From Raja brachyura (lineage: Eukaryota), in assembly GCA_963514005.1 (NCBI GenBank), contig OY740797.1, positions 42,470,001-42,534,000 on the forward strand: a stretch of DNA of 64,000 nucleotides, written 5' to 3'. A program made the translations under genes and the position numbers. Numbering within the stretch: the stretch's first letter is position 1; each line of letters starts with the position of its first letter. Below the pieces are notes generated by a model. It had not been told where the DNA came from and made no database searches. It saw only the letters and a list, made by a program, of their open reading frames with translations. This document shows positions 23,676-35,416 of the stretch, piece by piece.

Positions 23676-24376
23676 TTGGACTCACAAATGCCATTAATTA
23701 AAAGATTTTCCAATAACATAAAGTTGCGTTTGGTCCTGTAAGTTCACCAATAATGCGTTCAAATCTTGAATCTGTTTGCATTTAAGCTAGAGTTCCTTAT
23801 CGAGTTAGTTGGTAAATTCACCCAGTCGATGTTTAACTTATGTTTGACAGAATAGGCCTACCATATCACAGATTAAGAATTAAATCCAATAAAATTGTTA
23901 CACAGCATTTTGTGAAATAAATAGTTCAACTTTCTTTACGTGACGTTATACAACTTCAACCAACTGCATTATGCCCCTGTGCTTTATCTGCGCCCACAGT
24001 TCACATTGAGTTGATTGAGATGGATTGGCCTGAAATGCACGCAGTTACTTGTGGGTTGGAGGAGAGCTTGCGGTAAGGAAACCCTCATGGGTCAGCATCT
24101 ACGTGACTCTCATGCTTGTACATTGCAGTGAAGAAGTGAGACCATGCTGGAGGACAGGAGTTGGGACATTTGACCTCTATCCTGAGAGTCACCATGCGGT
24201 CGATGGAGGTTCTTGGTGCTGGATACACTTTGTATCTGGCTCATTGTTTTACATTTGCTGGCCTGGATGGGAAAGGTGAGCAGTTTTCATTTTGTTCATA
24301 TTTTAATTAGCAATAACGTTTTAAATTAATTTACATTTTTATTACTCATTATGTTTTAATTGAAGTATATTTATTT

Positions 24377-24515
24377 CTTCTTCTTCTTTCGTGTGGCGTG
24401 CACAGCCTAAAGTTGTTGGACAACTTGTTCTATTTGATTTTCCGTATGTGCACGTCGAGTTGATTGCATTAGTCGAAACAGGACGGACCACGTGAAGGTT
24501 GCAATCTTCCACCCC
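24377..24515 (-). mobile_element. 139-bp non-autonomous retroposon with an HDV-like ribozyme head and Vingi/Ingi-like (GAA)n tail, copy 1
   Basis: Perfect 14-bp TSD AAGTATATTTATTT at 24363-24376 and 24516-24529. The tail reads ...ggctgtgcacgccacacgaaagaagaagaag. A homologous copy lies at 35202-35334. Confidence 0.85.
24462..24515 (-). ncRNA. Minimal HDV-like self-cleaving ribozyme (54 nt), structurally intact
   Basis: GGGGUGG(P1)-AA-GAUUGCA(P2)-ACC(P3)-UUCACGU(L3)-GGU(P3')-CCGUCCU(P1')-G(P1.1)-UUUCGA-CUAA(J4/2, catalytic C)-UGCAAUC(P2'). G1-U wobble at the cleavage site. Confidence 0.82.
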
Positions 24516-24632
24516 AAGTATATTTATTTGGACCTGGTTTAAATGTCACTCATATCAGACTTATGAAGAGCTAGAGTTGAGCATCAGAATTGTCTGGGGG
24601 TGAGAGTGAAGGGGAGGTTAGATAGGGCGATC

Positions 24633-35201: not shown

Positions 35202-35334
35202 GGGGTGGGAGATAGCAACCTTCTCGTGGTCCGCCCGGTTTTGACTAATGCAATCAACCTGACGTGCACAAACAAATAGATCAAATAGAACACATTGACT
35301 TACAACTTTAGGCTGTGCACGCCATACGAAGAAG
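35202..35334 (+). mobile_element. HDV-ribozyme-headed short retroposon, copy 2 (ribozyme 35202-35255, partly degenerate)
   Basis: ggggtgggagatagcaaccttctcgtggtccgcccggttttgactaatgcaatc...ggctgtgcacgccatacgaagaag. Flanked by ATTAACAA(C) duplications at 35192-35200 and 35335-35351. Confidence 0.82.
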
Positions 35335-35416
35335 ATTAACAAATTAACAACCAAGAACCAAGAACAAGGTGCGGTTAAATAAAATAAAGGCCTAGAAACA
35401 ACTCCGTGATGTTTTG

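Follow-up and report, generated by a model that had tools for sequence, protein, structure and literature searches.

A 139-nt LINE derivative in Raja brachyura headed by a predicted P4-less HDV-like ribozyme fold

Introduction

A stretch of only 139 nucleotides that opens with what looks like a ribozyme and closes with the tail of a LINE raises the questions of what it is, where its two ends came from and how it was multiplied. This non-autonomous element lies on the minus strand at 24377..24515 of a 64,000-nt stretch of the Raja brachyura genome (contig OY740797.1; the whole stretch analysed is called the window), and all features that an earlier note had claimed for it are present there. In the following, position 1 of the element (G1) corresponds to 24515.

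The general scheme of ribozyme-headed internal-deletion elements is known, and R2 SIDEs and NARTc precede the element described here. In vitro cleavage has been shown for the ribozymes of R2 SIDEs (Eickbush and Eickbush 2012; PMC3414825). A single stretch of 77 nt serves L1Tc both as promoter and as ribozyme (Pr77; PMC4035085, PMC8256844), and NARTc has the L1Tc ribozyme in common (PMC6765202). Vingi is counted by Kojima 2018 (PMC5786205) among the clades with bipartite derivatives and, in the available portion of that text, not among the ribozyme clades. HDV-like ribozymes without P4 also cleave in vitro; nearly 99% of these minimal ribozymes were found in Caudoviricetes phages, beside tRNAs, in a search that covered human, mouse and protists as eukaryotes, and their origin and function are called open (PMC10879173).

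Results

The fold at the head of the element

The first 54 nt (24462..24515) were checked pair by pair on the minus strand and agree with the secondary structure proposed earlier. P1 pairs GGGGUGG (1-7, 24509..24515) with CCGUCCU (30-36, 24480-24486) including the G1-U36 wobble, to which two further G-U wobbles, G4-U33 and U5-G32, have to be added; P2 (10-16, 24500..24506, with 48-54, 24462-24468) is perfect in all 7/7 pairs; and P3 (ACC/GGU) with its loop L3 (UUCACGU) occupies 17-29 (24487..24499), including the core letters U20, U21, C22 and G25. At 24469..24479 follow G37-U38 as partners of the single-pair P1.1, a 5-nt loop in place of P4, which had rightly been called reduced (UUUCGA stands where it would be), and J4/2, which reads CUAA with the predicted catalytic C44 (24472). 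The model thus contains the nested double pseudoknot of HDV-like ribozymes (P1, P2, P3, P1.1) as well as their core letters, namely the G1 wobble, U20, C22, G25, G37 and a J4/2 that begins with C and continues N-A-A, and cleavage is predicted 5' of G1. A canonical P4 helix is missing: P1 and C44 are 7 nt apart as against 16-26 nt in five relatives, and with P4 replaced by a short loop the predicted fold therefore falls into the minimal (P4-less) HDV-like subgroup as defined in PMC10879173. With one G-C plus U-U, P1.1 belongs to the weak type known from CPEB3, and no P4 is available for stacking (10.1101/2022.09.22.508989).

An HDV-like descriptor, composed with the window copy in view, matched a single site in the 64-kb window, which is this fold, and returned 19 loose and 0 compact strict matches in 30 Mb of Markov-1 random sequence. 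The fold is not a product of chance. In Rfam, a 91-nt stretch gave only two matches at E<=10, both to HDV models, on the same bases and far under gathering (13.5 and 13.3 bits), and a 2-kb stretch gave no ribozyme match; nested folding of the 139-mer was no better than that of shuffles (z-score -0.09) and preferred a rival stem in which C44 would be engaged. These low scores, together with the short length, the high copy number, the simple-repeat tail and the lack of any run of four T in the 139 nt, would also be expected of a Pol III SINE of the ordinary kind, or of a fold that arose by chance. Such an explanation is nevertheless highly improbable, for the head is the 5' end of a LINE, strict descriptor matches are absent from 30 Mb, pseudoknots are beyond the scoring of the folding program, and, as noted earlier, neither a tRNA nor an A or B box motif is found in the element. 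A tRNA-derived head is thereby refuted, and the element is no tRNA-derived SINE.

P1 and P3 together amount to -12.8 kcal/mol in a parent copy and to -6.8 in the window copy. On this structural model, catalysis by the 54-nt fold is probable, and cleavage 5' of G1 by a fold without P4 would probably be slow.

No host gene was recognised in the window, where 0/135 unmasked frames matched Pfam. At 24263-24280, ~100 bp from the element, the plus strand has a splice-donor-like site (GT at 24276) and the minus strand an acceptor-like one; no exon was confirmed.

Copies, ends and subfamilies

The target-site duplication of 14 bp reported earlier to adjoin G1 is an exact match between 24516..24529 (5' copy) and 24363..24376 (3' copy). 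A second, older family copy, 85% identical and with its fold damaged through point changes, lies on the plus strand at 35202..35335. Beyond the window, the suspected genome-wide family is real and dispersed, with at least 8,065 copies: a 25-letter pattern spanning the linker had 8,065 exact matches in the 2.7-Gb genome (control 0) and a ribozyme core pattern 5,246, both figures being lower bounds. The 5' ends cluster at G1, as predicted, in 26/30 copies picked by their tail alone; among 30 loci taken in genome order, two of which are one copy, the 5' end lies at G1 in 20 and at most 9 nt off in 28. Duplications of at least 8 bp, mostly 10-14, surround 68/81 copies (swapped-flank control 0/81), and no upstream flank common to the copies was seen. 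With many uniform copies, duplications of their own and a variable tail, the family has spread by independent retrotransposition, starting at G1. The descriptor is still passed by only 13/30 unselected copies.

Among 106 copies, a sample biased toward the two query copies, four subfamilies were distinguished, with a divergence of 6.0, 4.7, 3.2 and 1.2% from the column majority of each; the youngest (U33) includes the window copy. All 4 subfamily-level changes within the 54 nt fall on tolerated sites, one in J1/2, two as wobble conversions in P1 and one at the N of C-N-A-A. At this free position of J4/2 the first 100 matches of the core pattern show 63 U, 28 G, 9 A and 0 C. Three natural alleles differ at positions 32 and 33: A32/C33 in the parent, G32/C33, and G32/U33 in the window copy. 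P1 becomes weaker stepwise toward the younger subfamilies.

This weakening, together with the loss of P4 and the single G-C of P1.1, could also mean that the fold no longer performs useful catalysis in this lineage and was kept as a module for protection or protein binding at the 5' end, which full-length copying would pass on; the fold of the R2 ribozyme helps insertion as a structure (PMC11331408, PMC13708176). We consider this unlikely, because in 4/4 subfamilies the majority keeps C44 and the rest of the core letters, the sole change in J4/2 sits at the free position, and read-through RNAs with neither cleavage nor promoter should carry upstream flank, of which none is shared.

Part of the element was also found in 24 sequencing runs, in all of them as contigs; those of 4/24 runs, from four organisms, have the same G1 boundary and structure-compatible variants. 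Viral contigs held no relatives of the element.

The parent LINE

An autonomous-type partner sharing both ends, as envisaged earlier, is present in the same genome as a ~3 kb LINE with a single ORF and Vingi-type architecture. The clue to it was a bystander in locus L083, in which the same ribozyme continues into an endonuclease-like frame, and it was through L083 that the parent was reached instead of through Pfam PF14529, which gave 150 endonuclease matches. Searches with unique parts of the bystander yielded 41 and 626 candidates, among them the ~3.1-kb copies L143 and L161. When the parent is set against the older short copy, positions 1-80 and 94-134 are common and nothing between them is. 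The short element hence consists of the first 79 nt and the last 47 nt of the LINE with a 13-nt linker between; both ends stem from one LINE whose ORF was deleted, which makes it a bipartite element (SIDE).

The ~85-nt LINE tail assumed in the earlier note has to be replaced by three parts. LINE 5' UTR continues for 25 nt after the ribozyme (55-79, 24437..24461). The linker (24424..24436) does not occur in the LINE and starts by repeating the 8 letters that precede it in the older subfamily. The LINE 3' end of 47 nt (93-139, 24377..24423) holds the last five codons, the stop (24407-24409), a short 3' UTR and the (GAA)n tail. Of the notion of a ribozyme fused to a LINE tail, both the ribozyme and the LINE 3' end are retained, while the fusion gives way to internal deletion within one LINE. 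Likewise, the family is P4-less as claimed, and the fold is no property of the short element only, being already present in the parent.

Fragments of the parent match endonuclease (APE), RT and zf-RVT (C-terminal zinc motif) families, so that it has the compact single ORF with APE and RT; the closest intact protein is P0001 (1019 aa, 66%). For RNase H no Pfam match at E<=0.1 was obtained in P0001 or in 4 parent fragments, and the lack of this domain separates Vingi from Ingi (PMC13708176). From its architecture the parent likely belongs to the Vingi clade; no named Vingi reference occurred among 35 homologues, the PDB or the Atlas.

No intact parent ORF was found in a genome search of reduced sensitivity. 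Parent copies (27) diverge by 4.9%, and the two letters of the youngest short subfamily occur together in 0/73 parent-type tails. L277, L283 and L286 belong to another related LINE family, whose open frames are long and whose tail is similar; this family, the 5' end of which was not found, is a candidate non-cognate driver of the youngest short copies. In L143 a young short copy (L143:502-640) with its own duplication sits in the start of the parent ORF and must therefore have moved after that parent copy had landed. Among 20 long parent copies selected by their 5' UTR, 10 (L146-L150, L154, L155, L157, L159, L162) have the 5' segment inverted against the 3' segment, and in most of these the inverted piece reaches to within 14 nt of G1. 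We take these copies to resemble the products of twin priming, a term known from L1.

Related LINEs and the nature of the 5' end

Related LINEs were collected from 80 metagenome loci, 26 of which include the ORF start. The fold was seen in only 10/26 (8 distinct elements, 2 of them degenerate). Descriptor matches upstream of the ORF came from 5 loci (3 distinct elements), the controls being 14,211 nt of reverse strand, with 0 matches, and 131,524 nt of ORF interior, with 8; Rfam, run on 14/26 of these loci, added L163 and L192; and the folds of L164, L168 and L175, recognised by eye, were excluded from the pairing counts. The expected covariation in P1, P2 and P3 was found: 117/119 cells are paired in the window copy, the parent and five distant relatives, and in 37 of the paired cells both letters differ from the window copy as reference, counts that are biased upward because relatives were chosen for folding. 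P1+P3 exceeded 500/500 shuffles in paired cells and every slid register. Pairing is thus conserved, and the relatives differ from the window family, with its 7 nt, in that all five retain a P4 region of 16-26 nt. The relative L198 has the fold at its very start and is flanked by a duplication.

L3 of the HDV-like fold in L164 (424-560) is interrupted by a long hairpin. A second LINE family of the same genome, ~39% identical to P0001 (L284:565-655 and L309-L328), carries an HDV-like 5' fold of its own, in which the P4 region is long (P1 and the predicted catalytic C are 42 nt apart) and J4/2 reads CAGA; several copies of the family begin at or beside the G1 of this fold.

L198 (3117-3189; the same element in L199 and L200) reaches 55.6 bits on the Rfam CPEB3 model, with gathering at 35. 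It is a full-length, duplication-bounded LINE relative of 37% protein identity whose P1, P2 and P3 are nearly those of CPEB3 letter for letter, whereas in the other relatives these letters vary freely. As judged from this likeness, the mammalian CPEB3 ribozyme may descend from the 5' end of an L198-like LINE. The window copy gave no match to the Rfam CPEB3 model; it agrees with the CPEB3 ribozyme (RF00622; 10.1101/2022.09.22.508989) in its L3 letters, the U20-U26/G37-U38 numbering and a P1.1 of G-C plus U-U; CPEB3, in contrast, possesses a P4 and occurs as a single copy within an intron.

A single start at G1 need not result from cleavage. It is rather unlikely, though a serious alternative, that an origin by the same deletion was followed by transcription from a Pol II promoter internal to the first ~80 bp, which would set G1 as Pr77 does, the ribozyme being a second or back-up route; a 139-nt RNA copied in full with one start fits this model too. 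In the sister group Ingi both functions are combined in Pr77, Kojima 2018 (PMC5786205) expects bipartite elements to be transcribed by Pol II from their 5' ends, and 25 nt beyond the ribozyme were retained. On the other side, the letters of the helices are free among relatives while the pairing is kept, which indicates RNA structure rather than a DNA motif. The 5' junctions of 84 copies were exact in 30; in 20 a G is common to element and target, and 5 carried an unexplained extra G, which is what a promoter could leave. Capped L1 RNA gives a strong extra-G signal. The counts of 30 versus 5 therefore lean against a capped template, and a promoter such as Pr77 is compatible with them.

Pairing between the two ends

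Within the 139-mer, positions 62-69 of the 5' UTR part (24447-24454) are predicted to pair with 112-119 of the 3' UTR part (24397-24404), strands that the parent separates by 3 kb. This end-joining helix is free of subfamily-level changes, and one older subfamily lengthens it. In six elements with both ends, the own 5' and 3' segments, chosen once the pattern was known, pair better than in 719/719 other assignments. Interior windows as good as the own pairing numbered 3/95, 2/98, 2/96, 0/100, 13/96 and 44/96; the helix is accordingly weak in an L284 copy (13/96) and lacks support in L168 (44/96). Two families of the same genome gave own-pair medians of -14.8 and -13.7 kcal/mol, compared with -8.9 and -7.7 when crossed. 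A G predicted to restore the 3' helix strand of the L284 family occurred in 0/20 copies, of which 16/20 read as L284 and 4 were outside the pattern. Recurrence of the predicted helix, in other letters, among several relatives has to be regarded as a lead and no more; such a helix may explain why both ends are retained.

Single copies of ~95-120 nt with the tail and without the 3' helix strand were observed as well (L146:2967-3080, with duplicated flank, L126 and L251). They may be later deletions, or the helix may be dispensable.

Discussion

The reading that we prefer, with a probability of roughly two in three, is that the 139-mer is an internal-deletion derivative of the ~3 kb LINE, likely a Vingi; its fold likely frees the RNA from longer host transcripts at G1, and the LINE protein would then copy this RNA into new sites. 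A master copy would be transcribed by read-through; the 54-nt fold would cleave 5' of G1 and then stay folded on the RNA; and the 5' and 3' UTR strands would pair beside the tail and so offer the RNA as template to the LINE protein. Starting at the (GAA)n tail, target-primed reverse transcription, a step taken from LINE biology, would yield the full-length inserts with duplications of 10-14 bp that are observed as products. The shared ends suggest mobilisation in trans by the parent protein, and at least four subfamilies would have spread successively, the youngest after the decay of the sampled parent copies. The narrower proposal that an active 54-nt ribozyme sets the 5' end and a conserved helix, free in its letters, clamps the ends by the tail, which together would form a minimal template for a Vingi-type RT, is tentative and somewhat more doubtful than probable.

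Like R2 SIDEs (PMC3414825), the element is non-coding and combines a 5' HDV-like ribozyme fold and a LINE 3' end with an unrelated middle; it differs in its size (139 nt versus 529 bp), in thousands of dispersed copies instead of a location in rDNA, in its APE-type parent and in the lack of P4, and cleavage, shown for R2 SIDEs, is a prediction for the 139-mer. With NARTc and RIME of L1Tc and Ingi (PMC4035085, PMC6765202, PMC8256844) it has in common that a bipartite derivative of an APE LINE is headed by an HDV-like ribozyme within the first ~77 nt, unlike these in an animal host and with a parent devoid of RNase H. The non-autonomous derivatives of Vingi-1_EE (Kojima 2011, cited in PMC5786205) are likewise internal deletions of a compact single-ORF LINE. 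The minimal ribozymes drz-Mtgn-1 and theta (PMC10879173) resemble it in lacking P4, in a catalytic C first in J4/2 (predicted for the 139-mer) and in a G1 at a meaningful boundary; unlike those of phages, the present fold heads an animal retroposon.

Descriptions of the 139-nt family, of a Vingi ribozyme, of the end-joining helix or of a retrotransposon origin of CPEB3 were not met with in a literature search of article listings, and the family may already be catalogued with its ribozyme overlooked. The novelty lies in the size, in the copy number and in the P4-less ribozyme fold, as modelled, of an animal retroposon.

A P4-less HDV-like fold, so far almost confined to phages, is thus predicted at the head of a highly successful animal retroposon, whose thousands of natural variants are open to testing. 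Predicted 5' ribozymes are extended to the Vingi-type group of LINEs, together with a testable reason for its bipartite derivatives. Vingi-1 serves as an RNA-only gene writer with templates that carry both UTRs (PMC13708176), so that a natural template of 139 nt points at the smallest cis signals. If the minimal template reading is true, the element would be the first animal, retrotransposon-borne home of minimal HDV-like ribozymes and would explain why derivatives in this group of LINEs retain both ends.
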